Shown piece by piece: positions 1 through 24,197 of a DNA stretch of 24,197 nucleotides. Position numbers and translations under genes: made by a program. The notes under the pieces were generated by a model. It was not told the origin of the DNA. It did no database searches and was given only the letters and a program-made list of their open reading frames with translations. The DNA is from a virus (lineage: Duplodnaviria > Heunggongvirae > Uroviricota > Caudoviricetes): IMG/VR virus record IMGVR_UViG_2619619133_000006, positions 1 to 24,197 of that record; one strand, 5' to 3'. Every line of letters starts with the position of its first letter. Positions within the stretch are counted from its first letter, which is position 1.

Positions 1-291
1 TCTCATTGCAGCCCCACGAATAGCATCGACCCCGATCAGCCCAACGCCGCCACCAATGGCAACAGAAAGAGATTTAGGCCATCCGACATACTCAAGAGCG
101 GATGCAAAAGTCAGCGTCAGAGCACCACAGAGCAAAATCTCGAGCGTTTTTCGTTTCCAGCCACCACCACCGCCAAAATAGGCAATGCGCAAGCCAGCCA
201 TAACGATCGACATAATCACTGCGCCCAGCGGTGTGTCTCCACGCCACCAGCTCTGGACCAACTCCAGCCAGGTATTTGGGTTATGAGGCAT
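1..291 (-). CDS. Holin, lambda S family (N-terminal 97 codons; 3' end beyond window start)
   Basis: Minus-strand ATG at 291-289; translation MPHNPNTWLELVQSWWRGDTPLGAVIMSIVMAGLRIAYFGGGGGWKRKTLEILLCGALTLTF... aligns in pattern with lambda S / P22 gp13 ([33 protein letters not shown]) as recalled. Hydrophobic segments; lies downstream of Q. Not in the ORF track because it runs off the edge. Confidence 0.55.
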   Translation of the reverse strand, partial: MPHNPNTWLELVQSWWRGDTPLGAVIMSIVMAGLRIAYFGGGGGWKRKTLEILLCGALTLTFASALEYVGWPKSLSVAIGGGVGLIGVDAIRGAAMR

Positions 292-745
292 TTGTAGTTA
301 TCTCTCACCTCGCCGATACAGGAGGTGCAAATTGAGGGAGTACCACGAACCGCAAACCAGAAGCGGAAACGTAAAAGAAGCCGAGCCAATGGATAAGTGC
401 TAGATAGACCAAGCCCAACGAATACCAAGGCCCAGAAATGACAAAACCCGCTCGACGGCAGGTTTAAGCTGTGTGGCGAAGTAACCACTCTTAACAGATT
501 ACACGATAAAATGCGGACCGCGTGAGGAAAACTATGGTTTTTTTGAAGCGAATGAGTAAAATCAACGCCACTTTGCACATAAGTTATCCACACTGTACGT
601 TTGCAAAATCTCATTGCTCTCTTTGAGTTTTGTAAATGCGCTAATTTTTGGACTTTTTTTGCCGATAGAATCTAACCACTTGTGTGGTAAGTTCTGAATG
701 AATGTTACCTCTTGGTTTGAAAATTCTTAACATAAGGACATCTGA

Positions 746-1741
746 ATGTTTGAGCAGCGTAAAGCCCTGTATGCGCAACTGGAACAAGCACGCAATTCAA
801 AAGTATTATGCTATGTAACAGGTGATAGACCAAACCAAGAAGCTCAAATCAGCGCTGATGTATTCGATCTGTTCGTCAATCATCTTGATGTGATAGGTGA
901 TGTTCAAAAAATTAGCCTCGTGCTCTATACGCGAGGCGGCGACACTTTAACAGCATGGAGCCTTGTAAACCTGCTTCGTCAGTTTTGTAAAGAACTCGAA
1001 ATCATAATCCCATCAAAATGCCATAGTTCTGGGACGATAATGTGCCTTGGCGCGAACAACTTGGTTATGACCAAGCAGGCAACCTTAGGGCCAATCGATC
1101 CAAGTGTGAATACACCACTTAACCCTTCGGCCATAATCAATGGGCAGCCACTTCAACTTCCAGTCAGTGTTGAAGAAATCAATGGCTATCTTGAAGTAGT
1201 TAAGCATGATTTGAGTATCAAAGATGATGCCTCACTTGCACAGATCCTCCTTGCATTAAGTGAAAAGGTTCATCCCTTGGTACTTGGAAAAGTCTATCGA
1301 GCTAAAGCGCAGATTCAAATGCTCGCAAGAAAACTACTGTCTCACCAACTCACTGATAGTGAAAGCATTGAGAAAATTGTAAGTTTCCTTTGTAGTGATT
1401 CTGGTAGCCATGACTACACTATAAATAGGATTGAAGCGGTAAACGATTTAGGTCTTACGGTGGAAAAACCAGATGAGCACCTTTACGGTCTGATCAAAGA
1501 AATTTATGAAGATTTCAAAACTGAGATGCATCTGGGTGAACCTTTTGACCCAAATGCTATCTTAGGAACAGTTAACCAGGCATCGTACGTATCTGTCAGA
1601 AGCATTTTAGAGGCTCCAGACACGTTTTCATATCAATTCCGCACTGAGGGGATGTTACAGCGTTTTCAAGTTCCAGGCGTCCCAGGTCAGTTCGGCATAA
1701 ATCATAACCTTATCTCAGAGGGGTGGGCTCGACATGGATAA
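746..1741 (+). CDS. SDH-family (serine dehydrogenase proteinase-like, ClpP/crotonase-fold) serine peptidase; accessory (moron) gene
   Basis: 331-aa ORF with AAGGA RBS 6 nt upstream. Motifs VLCYVTGDRPN, LVLYTRGGDTLTAW, HSSGTIMCLGA, LGPIDP match the SDH family as I recall it. Opposite strand to the flanking Q and holin genes, with non-coding flanks. Confidence 0.6.
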   Translation: MFEQRKALYAQLEQARNSKVLCYVTGDRPNQEAQISADVFDLFVNHLDVIGDVQKISLVLYTRGGDTLTAWSLVNLLRQFCKELEIIIPSKCHSSGTIMCLGANNLVMTKQATLGPIDPSVNTPLNPSAIINGQPLQLPVSVEEINGYLEVVKHDLSIKDDASLAQILLALSEKVHPLVLGKVYRAKAQIQMLARKLLSHQLTDSESIEKIVSFLCSDSGSHDYTINRIEAVNDLGLTVEKPDEHLYGLIKEIYEDFKTEMHLGEPFDPNAILGTVNQASYVSVRSILEAPDTFSYQFRTEGMLQRFQVPGVPGQFGINHNLISEGWARHG

Positions 1742-1910
1742 CAAATCATCTACAGGTAACTTTGTAGTCTATACTAACAGGCATACAACTACAGCTGCGC
1801 CTAAGCCAGCAAGCATTCCATCCACTGCTCAAAAAACAAGCAACAATGGCGTCAATGGCTACAGTAACTTTTTAAGTTGCACCACAGGTTCAGTCATAAA
1901 AAACAGTTTC

Positions 1911-1942
1911 TAAAAACAACGGCTCTCTAAGAGCCGTTGTTG
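1911..1942 (-). terminator. Intrinsic terminator hairpin immediately downstream of Q (possibly bidirectional)
   Basis: 10-bp perfect stem caacggctct / agagccgttg (1917-1926, 1930-1939), loop cta; on the minus strand followed by TTTTTAGAAACTGTTTTTT. Confidence 0.5.
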
Positions 1943-1945
1943 TAT

Positions 1946-2323
1946 CTATTCACATTCTAAACGTATATCGAGCATACTAAGGCAACCATCGATAAATCCC
2001 TCAGCCATCTGTATCTCAATGCGTATTAGTTTCTCATCCTTTTTACTAGCCTTGGCGAGCTTTCTTTTAGAGATACCGTATAGGTAATGGGCAACAAGAA
2101 GCGAATGTTCGTCCGGCCTTTTTTGCTTTAGACGAGCAAGACAACCTTCAATAATTAATGCATCACTATCTGAACAAGCCTGACGTGTTTTACTTGTATA
2201 GGGAAGAAGCCCTTTAAACCCAGCAGCTATAGGCGAATAATCTACTCCAGAACTATCACTCGCCGCCCATGCTCCCCAACGCTCCAGAACCATCTGAATA
2301 TCACGCATCAACTTTCTCCACAA
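1946..2323 (-). CDS. Late-gene antitermination protein Q-like (phage 82 / QuuD-type)
   Basis: 125-aa ORF; MRDIQMVLERWGAWAA... N-terminus and size recalled as typical of small Q antiterminators; canonical position upstream of the lysis genes. Confidence 0.55.
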   Translation of the reverse strand: MWRKLMRDIQMVLERWGAWAASDSSGVDYSPIAAGFKGLLPYTSKTRQACSDSDALIIEGCLARLKQKRPDEHSLLVAHYLYGISKRKLAKASKKDEKLIRIEIQMAEGFIDGCLSMLDIRLECE

Positions 2324-2325
2324 AA

Positions 2326-3321
2326 TCAGGCCAGCACACCAATCGCCAGCGCACGATCGATAAAACGAAATATCAGCTCCAGCTGGGAGCCATACTTCTC
2401 TTCAAATGCCACGGTATCCGCATGCAGCTCGTCGTGATGCTTTCTGCACAAAGGCAACACAAAAAGGTCATGCGCTTTTGTACCCATTCCACCCTGACCG
2501 TGGCCTATCAGGTGGTGGGGATCATCAGCGGGCTTTCCACAACATGCACACGGCTGCGTCTTAACCCAGCGCGTGTACTTTTCATTAACCCAGCGGCGAC
2601 GTTTTGGGCGTAACATAAAAGACTCCGGCGACTCCGGCTCCACTTTCAGCGCCAGCACCTTTTTCGCTTTATCCTGGATGATGCTGGTGGCAGGAACCGA
2701 AGGAACAAGATCACTTTCCCGGGTGACAGACGGCACAACAGGCTTCGGTAATCTCAGTGCCTTACGGGCTGCACTTTCCGGTAAGGCATCCGCCAGGTCA
2801 TTACGAACCAGCCACCAGCACAGTTCCGGCATTGTCACAACGTGACTGTCATCAAAACCGAGATCCCGACGCACGACAGACAACACCCAGCTGGCACAGT
2901 TATCCGTTGCCATTGATTCCAGCCGTTCCGTGAACTGATCGCGCAGCTGGTTATCGCAGTGCCAGCACAGACGGATTGCGCCCGGAGCGTGTCGCATTGT
3001 GGTCATGTTCTCGCTGTGCCAGTCGGAATGAGGCCACTGGCAGCCTTTTTCACGAAGTAACCAGCTTTCAAGACATTCCACGCCACCAGCACGACGGATC
3101 ACCGCCTCATTGCGGAACACAGCCCGAACGGCAGGATCATCCGCCAGTGGTTGTAATGCCGCCGGAACGGCACCACTGGAAAAAGATGAATAATGTTCCG
3201 GCTCAGGCTCCAGCAGGACACGCCCCTGCATAAACAGGGGCATCAGCTCTGAACCGGGTCTGAACAATACGATCCCCATACGCGGGGCAATTTCAGGGGT
3301 CAGTAGCGCTCTCACGGTCAC
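2326..3321 (-). CDS. DUF968-family prophage protein with C-terminal Cys/His cluster
   Basis: 331-aa ORF tightly packed between KilA-N and Q. C-terminus CACCGKPADDPHHLIGHGQGG...LCRKHHDELH suggests a zinc-binding HNH-like motif. Family assignment from memory. Confidence 0.5.
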   Translation of the reverse strand: MTVRALLTPEIAPRMGIVLFRPGSELMPLFMQGRVLLEPEPEHYSSFSSGAVPAALQPLADDPAVRAVFRNEAVIRRAGGVECLESWLLREKGCQWPHSDWHSENMTTMRHAPGAIRLCWHCDNQLRDQFTERLESMATDNCASWVLSVVRRDLGFDDSHVVTMPELCWWLVRNDLADALPESAARKALRLPKPVVPSVTRESDLVPSVPATSIIQDKAKKVLALKVEPESPESFMLRPKRRRWVNEKYTRWVKTQPCACCGKPADDPHHLIGHGQGGMGTKAHDLFVLPLCRKHHDELHADTVAFEEKYGSQLELIFRFIDRALAIGVLA

Positions 3322-3322
3322 C

Positions 3323-4126
3323 TCAATGAACGGTATCGAGCAGCTTTAACAGCTCAGGGAATCGGGATTCGAAGAAATGCGGCTGCGTCTCACGCGGATT
3401 TGCAGGACTGGTGATGTTCTTGCCGAACATGCAGCCTTTCGCCGTCAGCGACCAGAATTTTTTAATGTTGTTAATTGCGGTACGGCTGTATCGTTCGCGT
3501 TGTTCAACGATCCCCAGCTTCGCCATCTGGTGATATGCCTGATTAGCCGTCAGGCGGATACCATACTGCTTCAGCAGTGCACTCAGCGCCAGCGTCGGGC
3601 GGCTTGAGCCATCAGGCGCGTCAGCAGGAGCATCAATGGCATAGCGCGGTGCCAGATTCGGTAAGCCAACAGCCTCCTGGAGTTTCTGACAGGCACCAAG
3701 CACAGATGAGTTAGACAGGTTTAACTCCCGACGCATAAAGTCCAGCAGAATCACACCAGCCTGCATCTTGTCAGCAGCCTGCCCGGATAATTTTTCCGGT
3801 GCGCTGGTTACCATATCGAAAGTACGGATCACCTTCAGATGGAATGACGGGCTGATACACATTGCATAGGCATACACCAGTTCTTTGCAGACATACGTCC
3901 CCTGGTTATTTCCGCCACGAATAACGTTAACTGGCTCTATATTGACATTGACCGAGTTGCAAATCTGCAACTCGCTTATTAAACGTTCAGTTTGCTCATT
4001 GCGGAGCCAGAATGCAGGCTTATGCTTATCCAGAGAACCGGCAGCCCTGTGCAGATCGTTCAGGCTGTAACGCCCATAAGCATCACGACGAACTTCAATA
4101 CCATCAATAACCATCAGATTATTCAT
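3323..4126 (-). CDS. KilA-N domain protein (Roi/antirepressor-like)
   Basis: 267-aa ORF; N-terminus MNNLMVIDGIEVRRDAYGRYSLNDLHRAAGSLDKHKPAFWLRNEQTERLI fits the KilA-N/Bro-N signature. Confidence 0.55.
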   Translation of the reverse strand: MNNLMVIDGIEVRRDAYGRYSLNDLHRAAGSLDKHKPAFWLRNEQTERLISELQICNSVNVNIEPVNVIRGGNNQGTYVCKELVYAYAMCISPSFHLKVIRTFDMVTSAPEKLSGQAADKMQAGVILLDFMRRELNLSNSSVLGACQKLQEAVGLPNLAPRYAIDAPADAPDGSSRPTLALSALLKQYGIRLTANQAYHQMAKLGIVEQRERYSRTAINNIKKFWSLTAKGCMFGKNITSPANPRETQPHFFESRFPELLKLLDTVH

Positions 4127-13481: not shown

Positions 13482-13520
13482 AAAGAGGCTTCAACATAGA
13501 TTGGTAGCCTCTTTTATAAT
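13482..13520 (+). terminator. Hairpin with a weak T-tract after the second integrase
   Basis: aagaggct / agcctctt stem with 15-nt loop, followed by TTTATAATT. Confidence 0.35.
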
Positions 13521-13555
13521 TACATCGTTACAGAGCGTTTTAGAGGCATTTACGG

Positions 13556-14269
13556 CTATTCCTGTTTAAAGGCAGGAGTAATAGTGTCTTCACCTTCACT
13601 ACTAGATTTTTCAGTGTTAACACGTTTTTTCATATTAGCCCCGATGTTCTTAGATGGCTGTGTTTTGATAGCTACAGTGTTTACAGTGCCATAAGACACT
13701 AATCTTATTTGCTCAAAGCTAAGATCAAATACCAGAGATTCGCTTGCCTCTTCTGTGTATTCGATGCCTGTTAAAACAACGTTCTCAAAAGTTTTATTTT
13801 CTGTAACAAGAAGAAAAGGCTGTCTACTGTCCATAATCTGATTCAGGTAGTCGATAGCTAATGATCTTCTGTTCCCGTTCACCCCTGCACTCTTTAACAA
13901 GCCAGGATCGCTTTTAATCGGTGTTTCAGTGATCCTTCCCTTAAGAGAAAACTTATTGTTTTTAATTTGAACGTGATCAGACACAGTAGCACCATTCTCT
14001 ACGGGGTAGCTTGTGACATCTGCCGAACGTCTCACGTTCACATCATCTACACTGTCAAAGGCCAGTGCCATATAATTTTCATAAACGTCATTGCCAGAAG
14101 ATGCCAAGCCACTTGTAACAATAGCAAATCCATTCTCTCCTTTTGTTTTATTAGCTTTGCTATTTTCGTTTTTTGTAGAGTTTATATCTTGTTCTGCTTT
14201 GTAAACAGCCTGAACGTGTTGTTCTGGAGTATTTGCTGCACGTATGGTTAAAATTCCCGCCGTTGCCAT
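13556..14269 (-). CDS. Hypothetical protein (virion-protein-like composition)
   Basis: 237-aa ORF with AAGGAAA RBS; rich in N/S/T/G; last gene of the minus-strand cluster, facing the integrase. Confidence 0.4.
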   Translation of the reverse strand: MATAGILTIRAANTPEQHVQAVYKAEQDINSTKNENSKANKTKGENGFAIVTSGLASSGNDVYENYMALAFDSVDDVNVRRSADVTSYPVENGATVSDHVQIKNNKFSLKGRITETPIKSDPGLLKSAGVNGNRRSLAIDYLNQIMDSRQPFLLVTENKTFENVVLTGIEYTEEASESLVFDLSFEQIRLVSYGTVNTVAIKTQPSKNIGANMKKRVNTEKSSSEGEDTITPAFKQE

Positions 14270-14290
14270 AATAATAATTTCCTTGTAATG

Positions 14291-16132
14291 TTATGGCGGA
14301 AATTCCCCGCCGTTAGATTGTCCTGATAAGCTGGTTAATGTTAATGATTTCAAGAAGCTATCCCGACTTGCTCTCGCTGTAAAATCCACATAATCGCTTA
14401 ATCTTGATGTGTCACTATTAATAGTAAGCGGAACCTCTGTTACCACTTCAAATGTAGGATTCAGATTAAACACAGGAGATAAATTATAAGCCGGAGTTGT
14501 CATTGCAAGATTATTTAAAGCACCCTGTTTGAGATTGGTTATCGGTGCTTCATTGACTGACATTTTTACATCTGACACAGAAGATTTATCATCGAAAAGC
14601 AATCCCTTAATCGTGTTAAAGAGAGAATGACTATTATCAGGTGTAGTTGTTGCAGTGCCAGCGCCTTTATATTGATCAGGAACGAGATTAGAAAGATTCT
14701 GTTTCATTCCGTCATTGCTTAATGGCGGTGCATCACCTAAATTTTTCTGAATAGCCTCTGTCTTATCATCATTACGATTAAACCAGTTTACAATCTTCAT
14801 AATAGCTTCAAAGAGACTTCCTACAGCTTCTCCCAGCTTCGTAAAATACGGAGTGAGATTAGAAAGGTTTTTCATAAACTCTTCCGTTACTTTTGGATCG
14901 AGAGATTTCATAAAGCCATCAACAAAGGCGATCCCTTGTGAGTCAGAAAGCCCACTAAGTGCATTATTCAGTTCACGGAATTTAATAACGCTTTCCTGTT
15001 GTGCCTGTGTTACCCAGCGCCCTGATTCTCGTTGTTCTCGTGCTGATTGTTCCACTTCTTTAGCGGAGCGTGTCCAGTATTTAGAGGTGAGCATCAAATC
15101 ATCAGCCAGATCTTCCAGACGACTACCGATCTGCGCATCTGAATAGCCCTTTTTCACCATTCCATTGACAGCTTTACTAACCAGACCAGCCGGATTATCA
15201 GCAAAGTCTTTTAAATCTTTCTTAGTTAAGAAACCTTCGTTAAGTAAAGTATTAATACCTGAATCGCCGCCCTTCCATTCGCCTCGGCCTGTTTTCTTAT
15301 CAACTACATATTCAGCTTCATCATAAGATTTGGTTGCACGTTCACGCACATCTTTCATCTGATCCAGATACTTGCGACGACCTTGATCCCCCATCATTGA
15401 ATCAACGCCGTTTTTATACGCCCATTGTTCAATATTGTTCATCTGGTTAACATCTACACCGCCCAGCTTCGCACGGCTATACAATTCACCCAGCGTTTCA
15501 GCGTTAGCGAAGCTGTTAGCCATAAATTCAGAGGTTTTACTAACAGCCATCACGCCAGCAGCAGCCGTAGCGCCTCCAAATAACAGAGCGCCCATAGTGG
15601 CGGAATTCCCTGATCCTCCCTTAACGGGGGCTAATTGTGCTTTTCTGTTGCCATTAATTTTACGTTGTTGCTGTTGTAAGCGTTTCATCTGGCTATTCAT
15701 ACGTGCAAGCGAGATAGCGCCTTGTTCGTATTGTTTGGCTATCTCACGCGCCTGTGCAATAGCTTTGTATTGTTCCGCTACAGAGAGGCGGTGCATTGCA
15801 CTGATAGAGCTTGAAACATCAAGGAGCTTTAACTCTGCTTTCTCTTTACGTGCTGCTATTTGTGCCTGTTGCCTTGCCTGTGCTCTTGCTGCGGCAGCTT
15901 GTGCTTTTTGATTCTGTTTTTCGTTTTTCGCTTTTTGCTGGGTAATCTTGTCTACTTCACTTTGTGCTTTCTTATAGCCTTTAGTGACACTATCAAACCT
16001 TAATTTAGCTGGCTTGATATTTTCTGTGAATTCTTTTAGGCTTGTAATAGAGTCTTTCGCTTTTTTCAAGCTGTCTTTATCTACACTAAATGTTACTGTG
16101 TTCTTAATTTTAGAAGTGTTAATTTCTAACAT
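14291..16132 (-). CDS. Large hypothetical protein with N-terminal coiled-coil/low-complexity region (structural or ejection-protein-like)
   Basis: 613-aa ORF with GGGGA RBS; N-terminal KAKNEKQNQKAQAAAARAQARQQAQIAARKEKAELK; no catalytic motif recognised. Confidence 0.45.
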   Translation of the reverse strand: MLEINTSKIKNTVTFSVDKDSLKKAKDSITSLKEFTENIKPAKLRFDSVTKGYKKAQSEVDKITQQKAKNEKQNQKAQAAAARAQARQQAQIAARKEKAELKLLDVSSSISAMHRLSVAEQYKAIAQAREIAKQYEQGAISLARMNSQMKRLQQQQRKINGNRKAQLAPVKGGSGNSATMGALLFGGATAAAGVMAVSKTSEFMANSFANAETLGELYSRAKLGGVDVNQMNNIEQWAYKNGVDSMMGDQGRRKYLDQMKDVRERATKSYDEAEYVVDKKTGRGEWKGGDSGINTLLNEGFLTKKDLKDFADNPAGLVSKAVNGMVKKGYSDAQIGSRLEDLADDLMLTSKYWTRSAKEVEQSAREQRESGRWVTQAQQESVIKFRELNNALSGLSDSQGIAFVDGFMKSLDPKVTEEFMKNLSNLTPYFTKLGEAVGSLFEAIMKIVNWFNRNDDKTEAIQKNLGDAPPLSNDGMKQNLSNLVPDQYKGAGTATTTPDNSHSLFNTIKGLLFDDKSSVSDVKMSVNEAPITNLKQGALNNLAMTTPAYNLSPVFNLNPTFEVVTEVPLTINSDTSRLSDYVDFTARASRDSFLKSLTLTSLSGQSNGGEFPP

Positions 16133-16147
16133 TTAAAATCCCCCTTA

Positions 16148-16351
16148 TTAATCATTTTTACAACCTTCTTTACTTAAGAAATGGTGTAGAGCCTGATCAA
16201 TACTCTCGTTTAATCTGAACATACGGGCTTTTACTCCTTCATATGGAACATCTAAGAGAGAACATAGATATTTCAGATTTAACAAGCCTCTAGAATCATT
16301 AGCATCTAAATGTACGTGGACACCATTTTTTGATTTCAGAATCACTTCCAT
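16148..16351 (-). CDS. Small hypothetical protein
   Basis: 67-aa ORF with GAGAGGTGA RBS immediately after the A19 terminator. Confidence 0.35.
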   Translation of the reverse strand: MEVILKSKNGVHVHLDANDSRGLLNLKYLCSLLDVPYEGVKARMFRLNESIDQALHHFLSKEGCKND

Positions 16352-16373
16352 ATTTTAATCACCTCTCAAAATT

Positions 16374-16420
16374 AAAAAAAAAAAAAAAAAAAGGCGAAGC
16401 GTGAATACACGCCACGCCTC
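16374..16420 (-). terminator. Strong intrinsic terminator after the capsid-like gene, with a 19-nt homopolymeric T tract
   Basis: On the minus strand: hairpin ggcgtggcgtg-tatt-cacgcttcgcc (about 10 bp, one mismatch) followed by T19 (A19 on the plus strand, 16374-16392). Confidence 0.6.
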
Positions 16421-16436
16421 TATTACACGTTAAATA

Positions 16437-17465
16437 TTATTTAACAGTGATTTGAACGGAGAAGCCTACACCGTGGTTTACAACCATCTGGCTATTCTCT
16501 GTAACAACGTTAACAGCATCACCACGAGAAGATTCATAGCTATAGCTGTAAACCTCAGTAGGAGCGGCATTAATCAGTTCAAAGGTGCTGGAAGCAGCCC
16601 CGTAGATGTTCTGATATACGTTAGAGCCTTTAGCGAATTTAGGCACAGCTACAGCGTCTGCGGTCATATGTGCAAGGTGTAGCGGATCTACCAGTTTAAC
16701 AACATCAATGTTAGTTCCTGGAATAGTGAACGCTGTCACCCCTGGCAGCAGGTCACGACGCTGATACACAACGTTCCCTTCTTCCAGTGGGCTTACATAC
16801 TGGAATGCGTTTGCCATACCCGCAGAGAATCGAATTGCAGAGAAGGCTTCCGGCTTACAGAAAACAACAATACGCTCTACAGCAGCCGCCTGGCTTTGTG
16901 CTTTCTCGATAATGTCAGTAGCAATCTGATCAAATTCTTTAAAAATCTTCGTGGTGTCAGTGCTGGAAGCGTTCACAGTGGCTTTCATAGCTGATACGTT
17001 AAACAGCTTGCCCCACTCGATAAGAACATCATCAGTTTTAGGCGTGTAAGTTTTGCCAGAGAACAAAGAAGCCGCCAACACGCTCTCTTTAGTGCGCTGA
17101 TACGCTACGTGGTGTTTAGCAACATAGTCAGCATAGATATCAGTGAGTGTTTCCTGGAAATCAGTGCCAGGTTTACGTTTGCCTTGAACATCAGAAGGAC
17201 GGATCACATCTTCACGAAGAAAATACGGGATTTCAATCAGCCATTCTTTACCTTGTTCTCGCTTAGTAACGTTGTGTTCAGAAGAGAAACGAGAGGTTTC
17301 TTTGTTAAAGAGAGATTCGTTGCTTTCGACAAGCTGGGAAACAGCTACTTTATGAGAACTAACGCCCACCGGATCAGTGAAGTCGAGGGTAGAGAGCAGA
17401 TAGTTTCTAGTGCTATGAGCCTGGAAAAGCGGAGCTAAATCAACGTAATCATTACCTAGAATCAT
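16437..17465 (-). CDS. Putative major capsid protein (local similarity to T7 gp10-type capsid protein)
   Basis: 342-aa ORF. VERIVVFCKPEAFSAIRFSAGMANAFQYVSPLEEGNVVYQRRDLLPGVTAFTIPGT parallels T7 gp10A ADRVFYCDPDSYSAILAALMPNAANYAALIDPEKGSIRNVMGFEVVEVPHLT as recalled. Size, strong terminator after it and operon position fit a highly expressed structural gene. Confidence 0.45.
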   Translation of the reverse strand: MILGNDYVDLAPLFQAHSTRNYLLSTLDFTDPVGVSSHKVAVSQLVESNESLFNKETSRFSSEHNVTKREQGKEWLIEIPYFLREDVIRPSDVQGKRKPGTDFQETLTDIYADYVAKHHVAYQRTKESVLAASLFSGKTYTPKTDDVLIEWGKLFNVSAMKATVNASSTDTTKIFKEFDQIATDIIEKAQSQAAAVERIVVFCKPEAFSAIRFSAGMANAFQYVSPLEEGNVVYQRRDLLPGVTAFTIPGTNIDVVKLVDPLHLAHMTADAVAVPKFAKGSNVYQNIYGAASSTFELINAAPTEVYSYSYESSRGDAVNVVTENSQMVVNHGVGFSVQITVK

Positions 17466-17483
17466 TTATTATTATTCCTTTTA

Positions 17484-17846
17484 TTAAGAAGTGAAAACAG
17501 AGTGGAACCCTTCAAGCTGGAAGCCTTTTTTAATTAATGCTGTTTTTGCTGCTTCACTTACAGCATTCAGCGCATCAGCTTTGATGCAGACAAGCCCAGC
17601 ATTGCTACGTAGCACATCTACAGGCTTGTTGTCTCCAGCCGTTAAAAACTCACTCATAACAACATAGATATCATCTCCTGATTCATATTTAGCGCCAGTG
17701 CTTGTGATCAAGTCGCCGCACTCAACATCAGCAGGAAGAGAAGCAAAAACCTTGCTTTCTACAGAGGCAAACGGATCAGTACAATAACTTACAATATCTG
17801 TGAAAGTCTTTCGAACTGGAAATAGAGTGTCTAAATCAATAATCAT
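17484..17846 (-). CDS. Hypothetical protein upstream of the capsid-like gene
   Basis: 120-aa ORF overlapping the upstream stop (ATGA). Confidence 0.4.
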   Translation of the reverse strand: MIIDLDTLFPVRKTFTDIVSYCTDPFASVESKVFASLPADVECGDLITSTGAKYESGDDIYVVMSEFLTAGDNKPVDVLRSNAGLVCIKADALNAVSEAAKTALIKKGFQLEGFHSVFTS

Positions 17847-18055
17847 TTAGTAATCTCCTTAGCTTTTAATTTGATTAATTCATTAAGGGAAGGTGTAGAC
17901 GGAGAAGAAGGAGAAAAATATTTTTCAACACATCTTTCTACTTCCTCGACAGAACACCCAGCGTATTTAGCTACCATTTCGGTAATTTGTGGATTAATTT
18001 TCAGCATTTCATCTTTATACTTGATGATTTGCTCTTTATCATTTAAGAACAACAT
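17843..18055 (-). CDS. Small hypothetical protein
   Basis: 70-aa ORF, first gene after the 18.06-18.39 kb intergenic region. Confidence 0.35.
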   Translation of the reverse strand: MLFLNDKEQIIKYKDEMLKINPQITEMVAKYAGCSVEEVERCVEKYFSPSSPSTPSLNELIKLKAKEITK

Positions 18056-18329
18056 TTATATAAACCTTGTTACCTTGTTTAAAGTAAGAAATACAACTTT
18101 TAAGTTGCATAACGGGCAAAATAAAAGGCAGCATTTAAAGCCGCCTTTGTAATTACCCTATGTTATGCACACTCCAAGATGTATGCATAACAAAGGAAAA
18201 AAGAGGTAATAATGACACAGTATTTACTTAAGGAGGAGAAGCGGGGAGCGGAGATTTTACTCCCCTTTAACGACAAGAAGAATTTTTAATATCGAACCAA
18301 TAAAGGAAAAATAATCACCCCATATAATT

Positions 18330-18358
18330 ATATTAACATACAATAGATGGAATGTCAA
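18330..18358 (-). promoter_or_regulatory. Candidate sigma70 promoter for the capsid-containing operon
   Basis: Minus strand TTGACA (18358-18353), 17-bp spacer, TAATAT (18335-18330). Downstream palindromes CAACTT-TT-AAGTTG (18095-18108) and TTATGCA-N14-TGCATAA (18163-18190) could be operators. Confidence 0.35.
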
Positions 18359-18387
18359 GATATTTTACAACTTTTTTGTTGCTTTTT

Positions 18388-18726
18388 TTATTCTTCTGTG
18401 ATAGTAGCGCCTAAGCGTTGAGCTAGTTCAACAAGTCCGTCTCCTACATAGCGAACGTCCGATTCAAGACCTTCTATCCAGTTTGATAGCTCCCATAGCT
18501 GAGCCGCTGTCAGATATGCGTTCTCACGCTTACAGAGCATCTCTACACGCTTAGAGAGGTGCTCAAAGGCATTCACAGCTAAATCCCAGTGTTTAAACGC
18601 CTCATTTAGTGCCGCTGGCGTGTTTTCTTTGTATGCTTCAAGTTCAGCGCGGTTTAAAGGCAGGAGGTAATCATCCTCATAATAATTAATTAGTGAATAA
18701 ATTGTGTCATACGTGTTTTTGTTCAT
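18388..18726 (-). CDS. Hypothetical protein
   Basis: Likely start at the ATG at 18726 (GGAGA RBS, 2 nt after the upstream stop) rather than the track start at 18753; about 112 aa. Confidence 0.4.
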   Translation of the reverse strand: MNKNTYDTIYSLINYYEDDYLLPLNRAELEAYKENTPAALNEAFKHWDLAVNAFEHLSKRVEMLCKRENAYLTAAQLWELSNWIEGLESDVRYVGDGLVELAQRLGATITEE

Positions 18727-18727
18727 A

Positions 18728-19138
18728 TTAAAAGTCTCCATAGTGATCAACATTATCTAGAATATGGAATTCTGGGACTAAATTATTTAGGCCATTTGTG
18801 GCGAGATAACCAACGTAGTGGTTATAGTCTTCAAATCCTAAAATCTGGTATTTGCGGAGTTCGTCAGAACTAACAATATACTCTTTTCTTTTTCTAGGTT
18901 TCCAGAATACACCAGGTGTTGAAGATAAGATTTCTTGTAATGCGTTAAATTCATCTCCACAAGGCACAGAGGGAGAATGTTCTATGATCTCTGTTTTCCA
19001 TTCGCCAGGGGCGCTATTTTGCTTGGTGAGCGTAACTAGCTCTTTAAAGTCTTTACGTCTTAGAATAGATTTAGGTTTACTTAGAAGAGAAGCTGAATCA
19101 CCGATTTTCTTAACAACGTTGTTTTTTCTTTTTGCCAT
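18728..19138 (-). CDS. Hypothetical basic protein
   Basis: 136-aa ORF; lysine/arginine-rich N-terminus MAKRKNNVVKK. Confidence 0.4.
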   Translation of the reverse strand: MAKRKNNVVKKIGDSASLLSKPKSILRRKDFKELVTLTKQNSAPGEWKTEIIEHSPSVPCGDEFNALQEILSSTPGVFWKPRKRKEYIVSSDELRKYQILGFEDYNHYVGYLATNGLNNLVPEFHILDNVDHYGDF

Positions 19139-19270
19139 TATTTACTTTTCCTTTTCTTTTAAAGGAAAACACCCCGAAGTATGTTTCTAACGTGAGAAAG
19201 AACAATAACCAATACATAGCTACTATCATAATAATGTTTTCCTTTTATATTTTAATTACATAGAGAGATT

Positions 19271-19546
19271 TTAGAGAGTGGAATAGATGAATTCTACTTT
19301 ATCTAGTCTTTTGAGATTGAATGTAGAGAAAGATAATTCTTTAATCTCTATAACACCGAAATTTGATAGCTGTCTAAGCCAGAATTTTAAACCATCTTCA
19401 GAGCAAGCTGCTCGATGTAACACATCGCTATATTTTAGCGGTGTTGGCTTTCCTTTATAGAGGTAAGCAAGTGTTTCGTAGATGCGTTTTCCTGTGTCAT
19501 TACACTGAATTCTGTCTACTTGATTTTTTACTAAATATTGAATCAT
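19271..19546 (-). CDS. Small hypothetical protein
   Basis: 91-aa ORF in the operon. Confidence 0.35.
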   Translation of the reverse strand: MIQYLVKNQVDRIQCNDTGKRIYETLAYLYKGKPTPLKYSDVLHRAACSEDGLKFWLRQLSNFGVIEIKELSFSTFNLKRLDKVEFIYSTL

Positions 19547-19557
19547 AACCCTCCTTA

Positions 19558-20247
19558 TTAAAATGGAATATCAAAGTCTTCATATACTTTGGGATGTTTC
19601 TTAGCAAAATATGCCTCAATACCATTTGGTAGCTTTAACCTGTGCTTATAGGCTAACGATGTTGCAAATTCTATAAAGGATGCCCCTCCTGTTCTGGTAT
19701 TCTTCTGCGTGATAATAAGAGAGGCAAAATTCTCTAACACATCCTCCTCATTATCATTAGCTACCTTTTCATTTGATGAAACAGGTGTTTCTTCCATCTC
19801 CCAGGGTAAAGGCGTATCCCAATCATCAAGAACATCAAAAGAAGGCTGTTTATGGCCTTTAGGTTGTTCCTGTGCTTCTTCTGCCTCAGAAAGATCAGAG
19901 AGTGATGATTCTCCTGGGGGAGTAATATGTGCATCTGTGAGAGGGAGAGCATTGTAAATCAAAGATGAAATATACGGATCAGGATGTGGGGATGTTTCTA
20001 ATAATCCCATCTCTTTAAGATCGTTTATCTTACGTTTAATTGTTGACGCTGAAGACTTAAAAATCTTAGCTAATGTTTCGTGACTTTCATAACAATTAAG
20101 GTTGTTTTCCTGATAACTAAGGAATCGAAAATAAAGCACAATATGTAATAGTTCTAAATCTTTTCCTTGAGGGAATTTATCAGAATAAATCTTTGATACA
20201 TTATCAAACGTGTCATAGTGTTTTGTAAAAGTTAGTTGATTAATCAT
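19558..20247 (-). CDS. Putative DNA-binding / replication-initiator-like protein (N-terminal winged HTH, acidic linker)
   Basis: 229-aa ORF; LELLHIVLYFRFLSYQENNLNCYESHETLAKIFKSSASTIKRKINDLKEMGLLE resembles the HTH of phage/plasmid initiators; lies near the iteron region. Confidence 0.35.
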   Translation of the reverse strand: MINQLTFTKHYDTFDNVSKIYSDKFPQGKDLELLHIVLYFRFLSYQENNLNCYESHETLAKIFKSSASTIKRKINDLKEMGLLETSPHPDPYISSLIYNALPLTDAHITPPGESSLSDLSEAEEAQEQPKGHKQPSFDVLDDWDTPLPWEMEETPVSSNEKVANDNEEDVLENFASLIITQKNTRTGGASFIEFATSLAYKHRLKLPNGIEAYFAKKHPKVYEDFDIPF

Positions 20248-20298
20248 TAAAAATCTCCTTATAAATCACGCTTAATGCGCTACTAAAGTGAATGAGGA

Positions 20299-20466
20299 TC
20301 ACTTACCCTTTTTTTGTTTGATGTTCTCTGCTGCTTCAGTAATGATTTCTAACATCAAATCACTGACCATAATTTGCCTTTTCTTGGCTTCAGCAAATAA
20401 AACCTTGAAGATTTCAGGGTCAACGTGTAGGTAAGTGCGCGGAATTGGTTTCTTAGTTTCGCTCAT
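20299..20466 (-). CDS. Small protein (55 aa), possible DNA-binding regulator
   Basis: Below the ORF-track size cutoff. ATG at 20466-20464 with AGGAGA RBS; MSETKKPIPRTYLHVDPEIFKVLFAEAKKRQIMVSDLMLEIITEAAENIKQKKGK; a beta-strand-then-helix pattern is compatible with ribbon-helix-helix, which is uncertain. Confidence 0.3.
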   Translation of the reverse strand: MSETKKPIPRTYLHVDPEIFKVLFAEAKKRQIMVSDLMLEIITEAAENIKQKKGK

Positions 20467-20485
20467 AGTTTTCTCCTTCTATTCT

Positions 20486-20674
20486 TTACTCTGTTTCAGA
20501 TTCTTTTTCATTTTTTCTTAATTCATCAATAATCTTGAGTGCTTCATTGAAGCAAGCTGCTCGCTCTGGATAACCTCGACTCCTTGCCATATTACGATTC
20601 ATTACTATTTGATGGCGTGTAAGCTCACCTTTTTTAAATGCCTGGATGACGTGCTCAGATGTAAACCATTTCAT
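20486..20674 (-). CDS. Small hypothetical protein (first gene of the minus-strand operon)
   Basis: 62-aa ORF directly downstream of the candidate promoter at about 20.8 kb. Confidence 0.3.
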   Translation of the reverse strand: MKWFTSEHVIQAFKKGELTRHQIVMNRNMARSRGYPERAACFNEALKIIDELRKNEKESETE

Positions 20675-20784
20675 AAAAAACTCCTTATTCAGTTAAAAGA
20701 AAAAACACCTTGCAAGCCTGACGGCTTCAAAGTGCATTGATTTTGATTATTTAGAGAAGAATGTTTTCTGTCCCTCTAATACCT

Positions 20785-20813
20785 ATTATTACATATAAAG
20801 AAACATTTGTCAA
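20785..20813 (-). promoter_or_regulatory. Candidate sigma70 promoter facing the 62-aa gene
   Basis: Minus strand TTGACA (20813-20808), 17-bp spacer, AATAAT (20790-20785). Confidence 0.3.
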
Positions 20814-20905
20814 TACCCTTTCCGAAAAAAATCGATCTTTTTCATGCACTTACATTTTTTCTTAGCTATTCGTGCTCTTCTGTGTAGTGCTATTCTTCCT
20901 TATTG

Positions 20906-20935
20906 TCTAAAACGCTCTAAAACGCTCTAAAACGC
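20906..20935. repeat. Three exact tandem copies of 10-bp TCTAAAACGC
   Basis: Copies at 20906-20915, 20916-20925, 20926-20935. Confidence 0.7.
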
Positions 20936-21349
20936 GTTATAACGAGATTTTGATAAAAGCAATACATTCCCTTATGTAATGGCTGTTTAGCTCGCCAGAG
21001 GCTTATTTAAGGGGCTTATTTTGTATTTGTTAGGTATATGAAAAGGTAATGGTAGATATAAGATAGAGAGTCACTTTATAAAACGCTATGTAAAGCCCTG
21101 TAGTGAGCTTATATGTGTAGGCAATGCGTTTCCATTCCCTACCCTGCTTAATGCTGTTAGAGAAGCATTTAGACCCCTTATTTTTAATTAATTAAAGTAT
21201 CCTCTATACATTCCTGTTATGAAACACCTCTGAATCCTTCATAAAACACATTATGACGCAAAGAACACTTTTCTAAGGTGATTCCCTTCCTGAATGCTGT
21301 TTCTTGCGTCAGAGAGCTACAGAGAGCTTATAAAGCTATTATTAATAAT

Positions 21350-21410
21350 AAAGTAGATAAAGTAAGATAAGTAAGTAAGATAACTAAGATAGATAAGATT
21401 AATAAGATCA
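21350..21410. repeat. AT-rich GATAA / TAAGATAA repeat cluster
   Basis: aagtagataaagtaagataagtaagtaagataactaagatagataagattaataagatcag; multiple GATAA units. Confidence 0.5.
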
Positions 21411-21450
21411 GAATTCTCTTTCGGTGTCGCCTCTGGCTTTTCCACCGAAA

Positions 21451-21617
21451 ACAATTACACGACTACAGAATGTAGGAAGTGGAATTGTATTGAGGCTTAG
21501 TGAAATTACACGAGGAAAGCAGAGTGTAATTGAGCTTTAGCCGCTCTCTCTTCGAGTAATTACACAACTACAGAGAATAACGAGAGTTATTAAGTGTAGG
21601 AAGTGGAATTAAGAGGT
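21451..21617. repeat. Dispersed direct repeats (AATTACAC-N-ACTACAGA and 16-bp TGTAGGAAGTGGAATT, two copies each)
   Basis: TGTAGGAAGTGGAATT at 21471-21486 and 21595-21610 (exact); AATTACAC(G/A)ACTACAGA at about 21453 and 21559; the second copy carries a palindromic insert aataacgagagttatt. Confidence 0.6.
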
Positions 21618-21649
21618 AGAGAGAGTTACACATAAGCAATCAGTATGAT

Positions 21650-21835
21650 TGGTTAGGTGATTACTCTTCTGCGCACAGCGCAATAGTATTTCTTCGTGGG
21701 CGTTATCGCCAACGAAGTTACACGAAGAAAGTAACGCTTTGCTTTCGGTGTGAGCGGAACGGGCCAGCCACGAAGCCCGAAAGGTAGCGGAGTAAGGCTG
21801 CTTGCCAGGGAGTGAAGCTAACGCCGGAAGGCAAA
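21650..21835. ncRNA. GC-rich structured island inside the AT-rich origin-like region; candidate regulatory RNA
   Basis: Hairpins cttcgtgggcg-ttat-cgccaacgaag (21683-21708) and ctttcgg...ccgaaag (21739-21781). The only long ORF here (21609-21842, minus) translates to non-protein-like sequence. Confidence 0.25.
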
Positions 21836-21840
21836 AGATC

Positions 21841-21852
21841 ATATATATATAT
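21841..21852. repeat. (AT)6 dinucleotide repeat; candidate DNA-unwinding element
   Basis: atatatatatat immediately upstream of the 22-bp iterons. Confidence 0.4.
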
Positions 21853-21924
21853 AGATATAAAGAATATTATTATTATGATCTAATTAATAATCTAATATAG
21901 TTTTATTAATAGTCTTATTGTAGT

Positions 21925-22026
21925 TCACAGTGACCTACCCCCTAGCTCACTATGACCTACCCCCTAGCTCACTATGACCTACCCCCTAGCTCATAGTGAA
22001 CTACCCCCTAGGTCACAGTGACCTAT
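21925..22026. repeat. Iteron array A: 4.5 tandem copies of 22-bp TCACTATGACCTACCCCCTAGC
   Basis: Copies at 21925, 21947, 21969, 21991 (variant) and partial at 22013; directly abutting, no spacers. Confidence 0.8.
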
Positions 22027-22082
22027 ATAGTATAAAGAATATTATTTATATTATTTAATTATAGTATTTAATTATAGTATTG

Positions 22083-22184
22083 GTGGAACTCATTTCCTAG
22101 GTAGGTAGGAACTCATTTCCTAAGTAGGTAGGAAACCACTTCCTAGGTTACTTCCTAAATAGATCGGAAATCATTTCCTAGGTG
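22083..22184. repeat. Iteron array B: 4-5 copies of about 23-bp GGAACTCATTTCCTAGGTAG-like unit
   Basis: Copies at about 22085, 22108, 22131, 22166; each contains internal GGAA...TTCC dyad symmetry. Confidence 0.75.
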
Positions 22185-22198
22185 TTATTTATACTTAT

Positions 22199-22262
22199 CG
22201 GGTATCAGTTTTGATAGGGGTATCAGACTTGATAGGGGTAACAGAATTTTGTTAGGGTAAAA
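22199..22262. repeat. Iteron array C: 3-4 copies of about 18-bp TTGATAGGGGTATCAGA
   Basis: Copies at 22211-22227 and 22229-22245, plus partial copies on both sides. Confidence 0.7.
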
Positions 22263-22304
22263 ATCTCTTTAAAAGTTAAGATTAACAGAATTCTGTGGGG
22301 GTGG

Positions 22305-22341
22305 TTCACTATGACCTACCCCTAGTTCACTGTGAGCTACC
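22305..22341. repeat. Two further array-A-type iterons about 280 bp from the main array
   Basis: ttcactatgacctacccctag (22305-22325) and ttcactgtgagctacc (22326-22341). Confidence 0.65.
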
Positions 22342-22470
22342 GTTACATTCAATCATCTTCCGATGTGTAATATCGTTACATTCAATAATTAGTCTATGTA
22401 ACATATCGTTACTACCAACTTTCTTACAGAGAGCATTTCAGATAGCTGAATGTAACCTCTCGTTACATCC
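22340..22470. repeat. Repeat family CGTTACAT(T)C (4 direct copies plus 1 inverted)
   Basis: Copies at about 22340, 22372, 22406 and 22460; inverted copy tgaatgtaacc at 22447. Confidence 0.6.
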
Positions 22471-22936
22471 ATTTGTCACATAGCACTCTGTGTAATGTCT
22501 TTCTATGTGTGTGCCATAATCCCCCTATATTCCCTGTGTAAATCATAGAATATCCCTAACTTATTCCTGTGTAATTCCCTACTAAAAAATCCAATGAAAA
22601 ATGGCTTCAAAGTGCAATGTTAGCTTTCTTCACTTTTACATCACTTTCGCAAAGCCTTGTGTAATGCGGTTTACAGAGCACCATCAGAAATTGTTGGCTA
22701 AAAATTGTTCTGCTTGTTTCTTAATGAGTTTTCTTGTTTGTGCAAATTTTAAAATTTATTTTGTTTTTACAGCCTTATTTCGTGTAATGCGTGGCATAGC
22801 AAGCCCTTTTCTTGTGTTGTCAAGACATTTGGCAACGTTCAAACATCTGTTTAGAAATGCCAAATTATTGATCTAACAAATAAACCTGTATAAACAGAAC
22901 ACCATTTAATCTATTCCCCTGTGTATCCATTAGGCA

Positions 22937-23045
22937 TACCAAATGAATACAGCTAAATCGTGTAATATTCCGTACCCATAAGGCTTGAAACAGACCAAAT
23001 GAATACGATATACTCATTTGCATTGAAGTAGTGCCAAATCGATAC
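22937..23045. promoter_or_regulatory. Candidate recombinase-binding (res-like) site upstream of the serine recombinase gene
   Basis: Direct repeats ACCAAATGAATAC (22937-22949, 22997-23009) and related GCCAAATCGATAC (about 23031), 15-120 bp upstream of the recombinase start. Confidence 0.3.
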
Positions 23046-23059
23046 ATTAAGAGGATTTT

Positions 23060-23599
23060 ATGAGCAATATCGGTTATAAGCGTGTGAGCACTGTAGATCA
23101 GAACACTGATCGCCAGCTTGCAGGAGTAACGCTTGATAAAGTCTTTGAAGATAAGCTGTCAGGTAAAGACACTAACCGTCCAGGCTTACAAGCGTGTTTA
23201 TCCTATCTGAGAGAAGGCGACACCTTACACGTGCACTCTCTCGATCGTTTAGGGCGTAACACCTTAGACATTCTTGCCTTAGTGGAACAACTTAATAATC
23301 GTGGTGTAATTGTTCGCTTTCACAAAGAAGGGATCATTGCAGACATTACAAGCGCGATGGGAAAGATGATGCTTACGATGTTGTCGGCAGTTGCAACGTG
23401 TGAACGTGAACTGATGTTAGAGCGTAAACGAGAAGCGCAAGCCGTCAATCCTACAAAGCGTGGTAAAGGTAAAGCAGTGGATAGGGAAGGTATAAAGAAA
23501 GCCCTTTCTGATGGCCTGTCAGTGCGTAAAACCGCCGAGAGCTTTAATGTTGCTCCTTCAACGGTACAGCGAATTAAGAAGGAAGAAGAGGAGGCGTAA
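23060..23599 (+). CDS. Small serine recombinase (resolvase/invertase family)
   Basis: 179-aa ORF; catalytic N-terminus MSNIGYKRVSTVDQNTDRQ with Ser in the RVST motif; aligns in pattern with Hin/Gin/Tn3 resolvase; C-terminal HTH LSVRKTAESFNVAPSTVQRI. Confidence 0.85.
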   Translation: MSNIGYKRVSTVDQNTDRQLAGVTLDKVFEDKLSGKDTNRPGLQACLSYLREGDTLHVHSLDRLGRNTLDILALVEQLNNRGVIVRFHKEGIIADITSAMGKMMLTMLSAVATCERELMLERKREAQAVNPTKRGKGKAVDREGIKKALSDGLSVRKTAESFNVAPSTVQRIKKEEEEA

Positions 23600-23710
23600 T
23601 GCCTCCTTGATATTTGGGGATTCTGGATTTTCCAGATCGGGGGGCGCTGAAAATCGCGTTAAGCACCTCTCGCAATCTAGCCATAAGGGAAGGAATATAG
23701 GTATTTAGAT

Positions 23711-23750
23711 GTATTTATAGCTATTTATGGCTATTTATGGCTATTTATTT
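23711..23750. repeat. Four to five tandem 10-bp repeats (G/C)TATTTAT(G/A)G
   Basis: gtatttatag, ctatttatgg, ctatttatgg, ctatttattt in tandem; 10-bp phasing. Confidence 0.65.
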
Positions 23751-24038
23751 TTTATTTACCTTTATTTAAAAATAACCTTATAAATCAATAAGATACAGAA
23801 CTATCTGTTTATATTTTAACCAATTAAATCAAGTTTAATACCCTTAAATAACCTGAAAATAGCCTTAAATACCCCAATAATTAATTTTAAGGTTTTCCGT
23901 GTTCTCTTCTGCATTATGAAAATGCAAAATAAGGCACAAAACAAGCGCACAGACGCATTAAACACACATCACCTATACATCCCTATACCAAGCAATGAAA
24001 ACAGCGTTAGAATGCGTCCTGTTGGGTTCTGGAGATTT

Positions 24039-24197
24039 TCAGAAATCCTCTCTAAGCCATTTCAACTCACTAAGGAGTTTTCTTTCTTCGTTCTCTCGCT
24101 GTTTACGCTCTAGCCAGGCTTTTCCTTCTGGCGTAGACAGGAACTTACGAGCGTGAATCTTGCGGTTATTACGTTTTATAGCTGCAATGTTTTTCAT
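24039..24197 (-). CDS. Small basic hypothetical protein (52 aa), start codon at the window edge
   Basis: Minus-strand ATG at 24197-24195; MKNIAAIKRNNRKIHARKFLSTPEGKAWLERKQRENEERKLLSELKWLREDF; below the ORF-track cutoff. The start may lie further upstream outside the window. Confidence 0.25.
   Translation of the reverse strand: MKNIAAIKRNNRKIHARKFLSTPEGKAWLERKQRENEERKLLSELKWLREDF

Follow-up and report, generated by a model that had tools for sequence, protein, structure and literature searches.

A serine protease and a small overlapping partner ORF form a candidate anti-phage cassette in the Q–holin interval of an E. coli prophage

The window analysed here, a 24,197-nt stretch of DNA (positions 1 to 24,197 of IMG/VR record IMGVR_UViG_2619619133_000006), begins within a lambda-family holin gene (1..291, − strand; PF05106, 84 bits) that runs off the window start. 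On the other side of a variable segment lie the gene for antiterminator Q (1946..2323, −; PF06530, 179.6 bits; PGAP start at 2311) and, beyond Q, that of a DUF968 protein (2326..3321, −). Between holin and Q, and on the strand opposite to both, as an earlier note on this DNA had stated, sits a gene for an SDH-type ClpP-fold serine protease of 331 aa (746..1741, +). The same note had described a single, stand-alone gene with non-coding flanks. This holds for the 5′ flank (292-745), which contains no credible gene, but not for the 3′ flank, which is coding: a conserved, unannotated ORF of 59 aa (1734..1913, +) overlaps the protease stop codon and makes the cassette a pair. A further ORF (216..614, −; 132 aa) overlaps the holin start, has an odd composition and was judged spurious.

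The protease carries the PGAP accession WP_032249317.1 and the name ‘SDH family Clp fold serine proteinase’. Pfam PF01972 (SDH_protease) matches it at 53.6 bits, above the gathering score of 31.3, with an alignment confined to residues 53-124 that spans 72 of the 286 profile positions; the profile-HMM search proposed earlier thus does return a peptidase family. Together with an AF2 model built from 45 homologues (pLDDT 87.5, pTM 0.84), which shows a ClpP/crotonase fold, this upholds the initial assignment as an SDH/ClpP-fold serine peptidase. The top matches in a BFVD structure comparison carry the name ‘serine dehydrogenase proteinase’, and PHROG 11747, a family with no assigned function, matches at 310 bits, while a PDB sequence search gave chance matches only. 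The NCBIfam equivalog NF047768 (Clp_like_SDH) scores 69 bits, below its cut-off of 250, and the window protease represents a subfamily separate from it. In the AF2 model, this subfamily is marked by a helical insert and a C-terminal three-stranded beta domain (approximately residues 278-330). A Pfam scan of ten longer homologues found no extra domains, i.e. the protease domain alone. More distant likenesses exist to an NCBIfam head-maturation protease model (28.3 bits against a cut-off of 120), to ClpP-like head-maturation proteases among the PHROG matches and, weakly, to NfeD1b_N (11.8 bits against a cut-off of 40).

The predicted catalytic triad, Ser94, Asp118 and His222 (codons 1025-1027, 1097-1099 and 1409-1411, + strand), is unchanged in 45 homologues of 54-93% identity, and the predicted residues follow the Ser, Asp, His order of SDH-type proteinases. 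Ser94 is the first serine of HSSGT, the motif in which the catalytic serine had been placed beforehand, and the invariance of all three residues is consistent with that placement. A good Shine-Dalgarno sequence, AAGGA, precedes the gene at 734-738. Since no N-terminal hydrophobic stretch is apparent by eye, protease and partner are probably both cytoplasmic.

The partner ORF lacks a PGAP annotation in E. coli. Its ATG overlaps the stop codon of the protease gene (ATGGATAA), and GAGGGG at 1718-1723, 10 nt 5′ of this ATG, codes for the conserved C-terminal E-G-W of the protease (GAGGGGTGG) and could also serve as the partner's Shine-Dalgarno sequence; to judge by this arrangement, the two genes form a translationally coupled pair. 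Serine, threonine and asparagine make up 44% of the partner, no secondary structure was predicted when it was folded without an alignment, and the protein is probably disordered. HMM scans, Panacea included, found no known domain in it. Comparison with the Kluyvera copy counts 29.3 synonymous and 14.7 non-synonymous differences, and the resulting pN/pS of ∼0.16 places the partner under purifying selection (dN/dS is 0.04, with dS saturated), independent evidence that the ORF is real. The blocks conserved between the two are M-x-NKS-x-TGNFV-x-Y and GYSN-x-LSCTTG.

An equivalent ORF of 54-69 aa overlaps the 3′ end of the protease gene in every homologous locus of the first set examined, and a partner-like ORF was present in nearly all of 80 further loci from a one-genome-per-species scan. 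Altogether, the partner follows the protease at practically all loci that could be assessed, ∼95 of them and drawn from many bacterial phyla plus one archaeon; the few seeming exceptions either start further upstream or have a longer, fused form. At control positions, the rate for a comparable ORF is 13-18%. An HMM trained on 32 of the small proteins (consensus MNNNTNSDNNINYIDYTTSSASSGISETSAKPDSLSSIIKNNTVII) and searched against 18,129 six-frame ORF segments from 96 loci (1.03 Mb) retrieved 53-54 ORFs at E<1e-3, all of them on the + strand at the 3′ end of the protease gene. Enterobacterial partners are divergent from this family, and the window partner matches weakly (11.4 bits; E 0.21 in the set, ∼1e-5 as a single a-priori ORF), sharing with it an N-terminal motif (GNFVVYTN vs NINYIDYT). 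Proteases share a median pairwise identity of 55.6%, partners one of 17.6%; it is the partner, not the protease, that is variable and fast-evolving. In-frame fusions of the N-terminal half of the protease to the partner motif were also seen (P0229, 263 aa, and P0240, 210 aa; 42 and 16 bits with the partner HMM); these may be deletion derivatives or assembly artefacts.

In three of the 80 loci (L078, L084 and L087; hosts Succinivibrionaceae, Hungatella and Lachnospiraceae), the gene after the protease encodes a Panacea/SocA antitoxin domain (PF13274), with scores of 68-74 bits for L078 and L084 (Pfam) and 52 bits for L087 with the NCBIfam model named ‘type VI TA SocA antitoxin’. These genes encode 189-198 aa, and their Ser/Thr-rich N-termini carry an aromatic motif that looks partner-like by eye, without a match to the partner HMM. 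The 160-aa partners of two other loci (L048 and L059) were considered as HicB-like, for which HMM support was absent.

A 12-bp G+C-rich hairpin (1915..1941) lies between the partner ORF, which ends 1 nt before it, and the stop codon of Q. It is kept in Kluyvera with compensating changes and looks like a terminator acting on both strands. A second terminator-like hairpin, G+C-rich and with a T-run (444..465, −), is located ∼150 nt upstream of the holin gene inside a ∼60-nt element (443-503) that on its own also occurs in other E. coli genomes; hairpin and element may represent the late terminator tR′. No convincing, consensus-like sigma-70 promoter was found upstream of the protease gene, nor a consensus late promoter pR′ on the − strand from Q to the holin, the one weak match (9/12) falling inside the protease gene. 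The sequence 3′ of Q that prophages with the same Q allele have in common is limited to 1-526. Scans of the window for tRNAs and Rfam families returned nothing.

Homology breaks and base composition together delimit a variable cargo segment (504..1955) with a GC content of ∼40-43%, compared with 52-56% in the flanks. The holin flank matches 1,467 E. coli genomes, in which homology ends at window positions 496-526; it resumes on the right at 1956-1967, or at 2210-2262 where the Q allele differs as well. Only 47 of these 1467 genomes carry the cassette, i.e. most sister prophages are without it. In many comparisons, the C-terminal two-thirds of Q (1946-2262) fall within the low-GC exchanged segment, and cargo and Q allele therefore tend to swap together.

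What occupies this slot elsewhere was compared in ten sister prophages sharing both flanks. All ten contain other cargo, always on the opposite strand, which substantiates the earlier suggestion that the Q-to-holin interval is a cargo site. The occupants include the Kiwa proteins KwaA and KwaB, a TIR-TM protein (PADLOC, 194 bits), a KAP NTPase that matches the PADLOC candidate PDC-S20 at 589 bits and, in one genome, a pair named by PGAP as ‘nucleoid-associated anti-phage protein’ and ‘anti-phage protein’. Identical or near-identical versions of this last pair were found in two more genomes, and a fourth has a pair of similar organisation. One sister prophage holds a TIGR04255 protein with two hypotheticals, and others hold hypotheticals. 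With conserved flanks, interchangeable cargo and deviant composition all present, the cassette is prophage cargo (a ‘moron’), and the Q–holin interval is a hotspot for defence genes in this family of E. coli prophages. As evidence for a defence role of the cassette itself, slot occupancy amounts to strong guilt by association.

Several of the slot cargos annotated as hypothetical or TIGR04255 proteins comprise two or three genes (L096 3572-5135, L101 4110-6268, L120 4192-5919) and are candidates for undescribed defence systems; those of L096 and L101 have no strong PADLOC match. A second small cargo slot is located a few hundred bases from the hotspot: iss, which encodes the increased serum survival lipoprotein (a bor homologue), lies on the opposite strand in the lysis region of five prophages (L096, L098, L101, L119 and L121), at about position 1700-2500 in each.

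The E. coli prophage in the window has a P27-type terminase, a contractile tail and an HK97 prohead protease encoded between its portal and capsid genes. A whole phage genome including the cassette (at 2229-3400) and a dusA fragment beside the integrase is deposited as a circular ‘plasmid’ of 43,680 bp from E. coli AH02 (L123; NZ_CP081704.1), and the AH02 chromosome (NZ_CP081701) also matches the cassette. What was assembled as a plasmid is probably the phage genome in its excised or replicating state, and, with a chromosomal copy in the same strain, the phage is therefore probably excision-competent; NZ_CP081794 from strain CT01 (43,671 bp) appears to be another such record. In L123, a second cargo region (19,691-25,160) between the integrase and tail-fibre genes encodes a type II restriction endonuclease, a cytosine methyltransferase, a LEM-3-like GIY-YIG protein and an acyltransferase. 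In the window itself, the region directly after the prophage integrase (∼13,500-24,197; L122) holds another tyrosine recombinase together with a CP4-like island, which encodes cbtA with a YeeU-family antitoxin, an antirestriction protein, a RadC-like JAB protein and an Ag43 autotransporter. The window thus spans two mobile elements integrated in tandem.

Beyond E. coli, the protease family is broad in reach and patchy in occurrence, with 4,102 matches in a 90%-clustered database, 392 clusters at E<1e-30 in a 50%-clustered library and 364 carriers among 185,579 species representatives. Proteins at least 50% identical to the window protease occur in Proteobacteria, Bacteroidota, Bacillota, Spirochaetota, Chloroflexota, Planctomycetota, Patescibacteria and a Methanofastidiosum archaeon; the pair moves horizontally and is kept as a unit across phyla. 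Among 126 neighbour genes at 32 loci outside Enterobacteriaceae, the commonest shared Pfam family, an HTH, recurs no more than three times, so that the module has no third component. Represented among these genes are integrases, terminases, a portal, transposase fragments, restriction-modification, GmrSD, DpdF, PsyrT and housekeeping genes.

Where Pfam annotation defines the context, the setting is a prophage and the pair runs antisense to the phage genes around it; only the cI-adjacent copies depart from this strand rule. The Q–holin placement recurs in E. coli, Kluyvera, an Enterobacteriaceae MAG and K. variicola, and a Klebsiella sp. locus has the same gene order as judged by ORF sizes only. 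The pair is found in the nin region in K. michiganensis, Atlantibacter and Phytobacter, at the tail-fibre-side prophage end in Raoultella/Klebsiella, and 3′ of cI on the same strand in Pseudomonas (71 nt after cI) and Pectobacterium (260 nt after); this cI-adjacent placement corresponds to the rexAB position of lambda. These other placements are classic moron slots, and the slots that the pair takes in enterobacterial prophages are of a type whose cargo is expressed in the lysogen. A Nitrosomonas copy sits in a Mu-like remnant, the context of two metagenomic lineages is ambiguous, and none of the 14 lineages examined placed the pair in a PICI. Searches of 50,697 deposited phage genomes by megablast and tblastn found no homologue of the protease. 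In 47 of 5,426 complete E. coli genomes, the cassette is present at ≥99.7% identity and always beside Q, and many of these genomes look clonal; a DNA-level search of the 5,426 genomes, by distant blastn and by megablast with six other enterobacterial alleles, turned up no further E. coli allele.

How might such a pair act? We lean, with a confidence only a little better than even, towards a lysogen-expressed, toxin–antitoxin (TA)-like or abortive-infection anti-phage module in which the protease is the effector and the small partner its inhibitor or its sensor or bait. A defence role, very probably exerted in the lysogen, is the best reading of the locus because sister prophages hold Kiwa, the TIR-TM protein, PDC-S20 and the anti-phage-named proteins in the same slot. 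The earlier proposal of a defence or superinfection-exclusion function would therefore stand, except that it had been made for a peptidase acting alone. As in TA pairs, the unit is compact and bicistronic, its two genes are conserved together and no third gene accompanies them. In the lysogen, the module would be expressed and protect its host against other phages. The partner would bind the protease via its conserved N-terminal strand-like motif and keep it inactive, or else act as a bait; infection would remove or outcompete the partner, and the freed protease would then cleave its target. Extreme conservation of the protease itself (median ∼56% identity across phyla) points to a conserved host protein as the probable target, not to a phage protein that evolves fast.

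The Panacea fusions bear on this model in two ways. According to Kurata et al., writing in 2022, the domain reportedly accompanies many unrelated toxins and its variable extensions are said to give specificity, which fits a small motif as the protease-binding element and the protease as the ‘toxin’. Yet SocA, the founder of the Panacea domain, is itself a proteolytic adaptor, so the fusion does not cleanly separate a TA-like role from an adaptor role, and it occurs in only three of the 80 loci. Other points also count against the reading we favour: a gene order that starts with the putative toxin is unusual for a TA pair, as is a protease conserved to such an extreme, and we further weighed the lack of a PADLOC match, of a homologue in the phage genomes and of a convincing promoter, as well as the weak HMM match of the window partner.

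A bolder version, which we consider doubtful though worth stating, would make the pair an undescribed prokaryote-wide immune module distinct from the FS_HP_SDH_sah system discussed below. Its disordered partner of 55-80 aa would be both inhibitor and infection sensor, and the freed protease would abort infection by cleaving a universally conserved host protein. If so, this one gene pair would function without alteration in hosts ranging from E. coli through Bacillota and Patescibacteria to methanogenic archaea.

The main rival to the TA-like model assigns the partner a different task, namely that of an adaptor or activator for a protease that defends directly by cleaving one of the incoming phage's proteins, such as a capsid, scaffold or tail assembly protein. 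The adaptor activity of SocA, whose domain is fused to the partner in three loci, would suit it, as would the distant likeness of the protease to ClpP-like head-maturation proteases (28 bits with NCBIfam, and among PHROG matches); interference with phage assembly by prophage cargo also has a precedent in Tai (PMC11364771). What makes this rival unlikely is where the variability lies. A protease more than 50% identical across Proteobacteria, Bacillota, Patescibacteria and an archaeon ill fits fast-evolving phage targets, and it is the partner (17.6% median identity) that varies, not the protease (55.6%).

We give a still smaller chance to a pure addiction module that stabilises the prophage or another mobile element and has no anti-phage role. 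The overlapping bicistronic pair, the Panacea fusions and the occurrence in many kinds of mobile DNA would all be expected of it, but the E. coli slot is otherwise filled by bona fide defence systems, and many TA modules are also defensive, so that this reading and the TA-like defence module overlap. Improbable is a protease that benefits the phage during infection or induction, be it by counter-defence against host immune proteins or as a regulator of lysis and lysogeny. Proteases are able to inactivate host factors, and the gene does adjoin Q and the lysis genes; however, it is on the strand opposite to the late operon, is missing from most sister prophages (47 of the 1467 genomes with the holin flank carry it) and elsewhere either directly follows cI in the same orientation or has a non-phage setting. 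Finally, despite the ClpP fold and the weak matches to head-maturation and NfeD1b_N models, a morphogenetic protease of the prophage itself or a housekeeping SppA/NfeD-type membrane protease is barely conceivable: the scores are far under the cut-offs (28 vs 120 and 11.8 vs 40 bits), slot occupancy is variable, no hydrophobic N-terminal stretch is apparent by eye, and the head module already has its HK97 prohead protease, which, with the synteny, excludes a structural late-gene role.

Protease effectors constitute a small and poorly understood class in bacterial immunity, and we know of no mechanism for any SDH-type protease defence system. The functional unit is here defined as a gene pair whose smaller member escapes PGAP annotation in E. 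coli, and predicted catalytic residues as well as partner motifs are now on hand for testing. The unit is portable across phyla, and the Q–holin interval of a common E. coli prophage family offers a hotspot that could be mined for defence genes, several of its cargos still being called ‘hypothetical’.

Several known systems invite comparison. Lit of prophage e14, a zinc metalloprotease encoded by a single gene, causes abortive infection via EF-Tu upon activation by a T4 capsid peptide; without any homology, it shares with our proposal the logic of a prophage protease effector directed at a conserved host protein. With regard to position, stx in Stx phages and nmpC in DLP12 sit in comparable genomic slots, and phi80 is among the phages with opposite-strand cargo between Q and the late genes. 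In phi80, the defence gene taiEcA is divergent from the Q-controlled late operon, expressed in the lysogen and reduced upon Q expression, with late transcripts proposed to run antisense through the gene (PMC11364771). This gives a precedent for a divergent defence gene active in the lysogen within a late region under Q control; the slot is of the same kind as that of the cassette, whereas the proteins are unrelated. With Panacea (PanA/SocA) TA systems, the pair shares overlapping genes and, in three of 80 loci, a Panacea domain behind a Ser/Thr-rich N-terminus, but the window partner is without this domain. The ClpP fold and the Ser-Asp-His arrangement are common to the window protease and the canonical SDH-type proteinases (PF01972, NF047768), from which it differs by matching only 72 of 286 PF01972 positions and by its helical insert and C-terminal beta domain.

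The closest relative by description is FS_HP_SDH_sah, reportedly a validated anti-phage system of phage-inducible chromosomal islands described by Fillol-Salom et al. in Cell (185:3248, 2022). It is said to consist of two genes on enterobacterial mobile elements, one for an SDH_sah-domain protein and one for a ‘hypothetical protein’. Like this system, and likened to it by name and description only, the cassette comprises two adjacent genes (746-1741 and 1734-1913), one of them SDH-type. Unlike it, the module lies in prophages and never in a PICI among the 14 lineages examined; its partner of ∼60 aa, unannotated by PGAP in E. coli, can be set against the ‘HP’ by description only. The protease matched none of the 5027 models of PADLOC-DB v2.0.0 at E≤1, and a literature search on SDH or ClpP defence systems found only the name FS_HP_SDH_sah. 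As this name is listed as a DefenseFinder system in one article (PMC13532340), the earlier view that such a peptidase has no established role is probably out of date. An SDH_sah protease and a hypothetical protein on an enterobacterial mobile element are thus very probably of a kind already known. What appears to be new are the hidden small partner, the pair's conservation from phylum to phylum, its fusions to Panacea and the context of a Q–holin defence hotspot.
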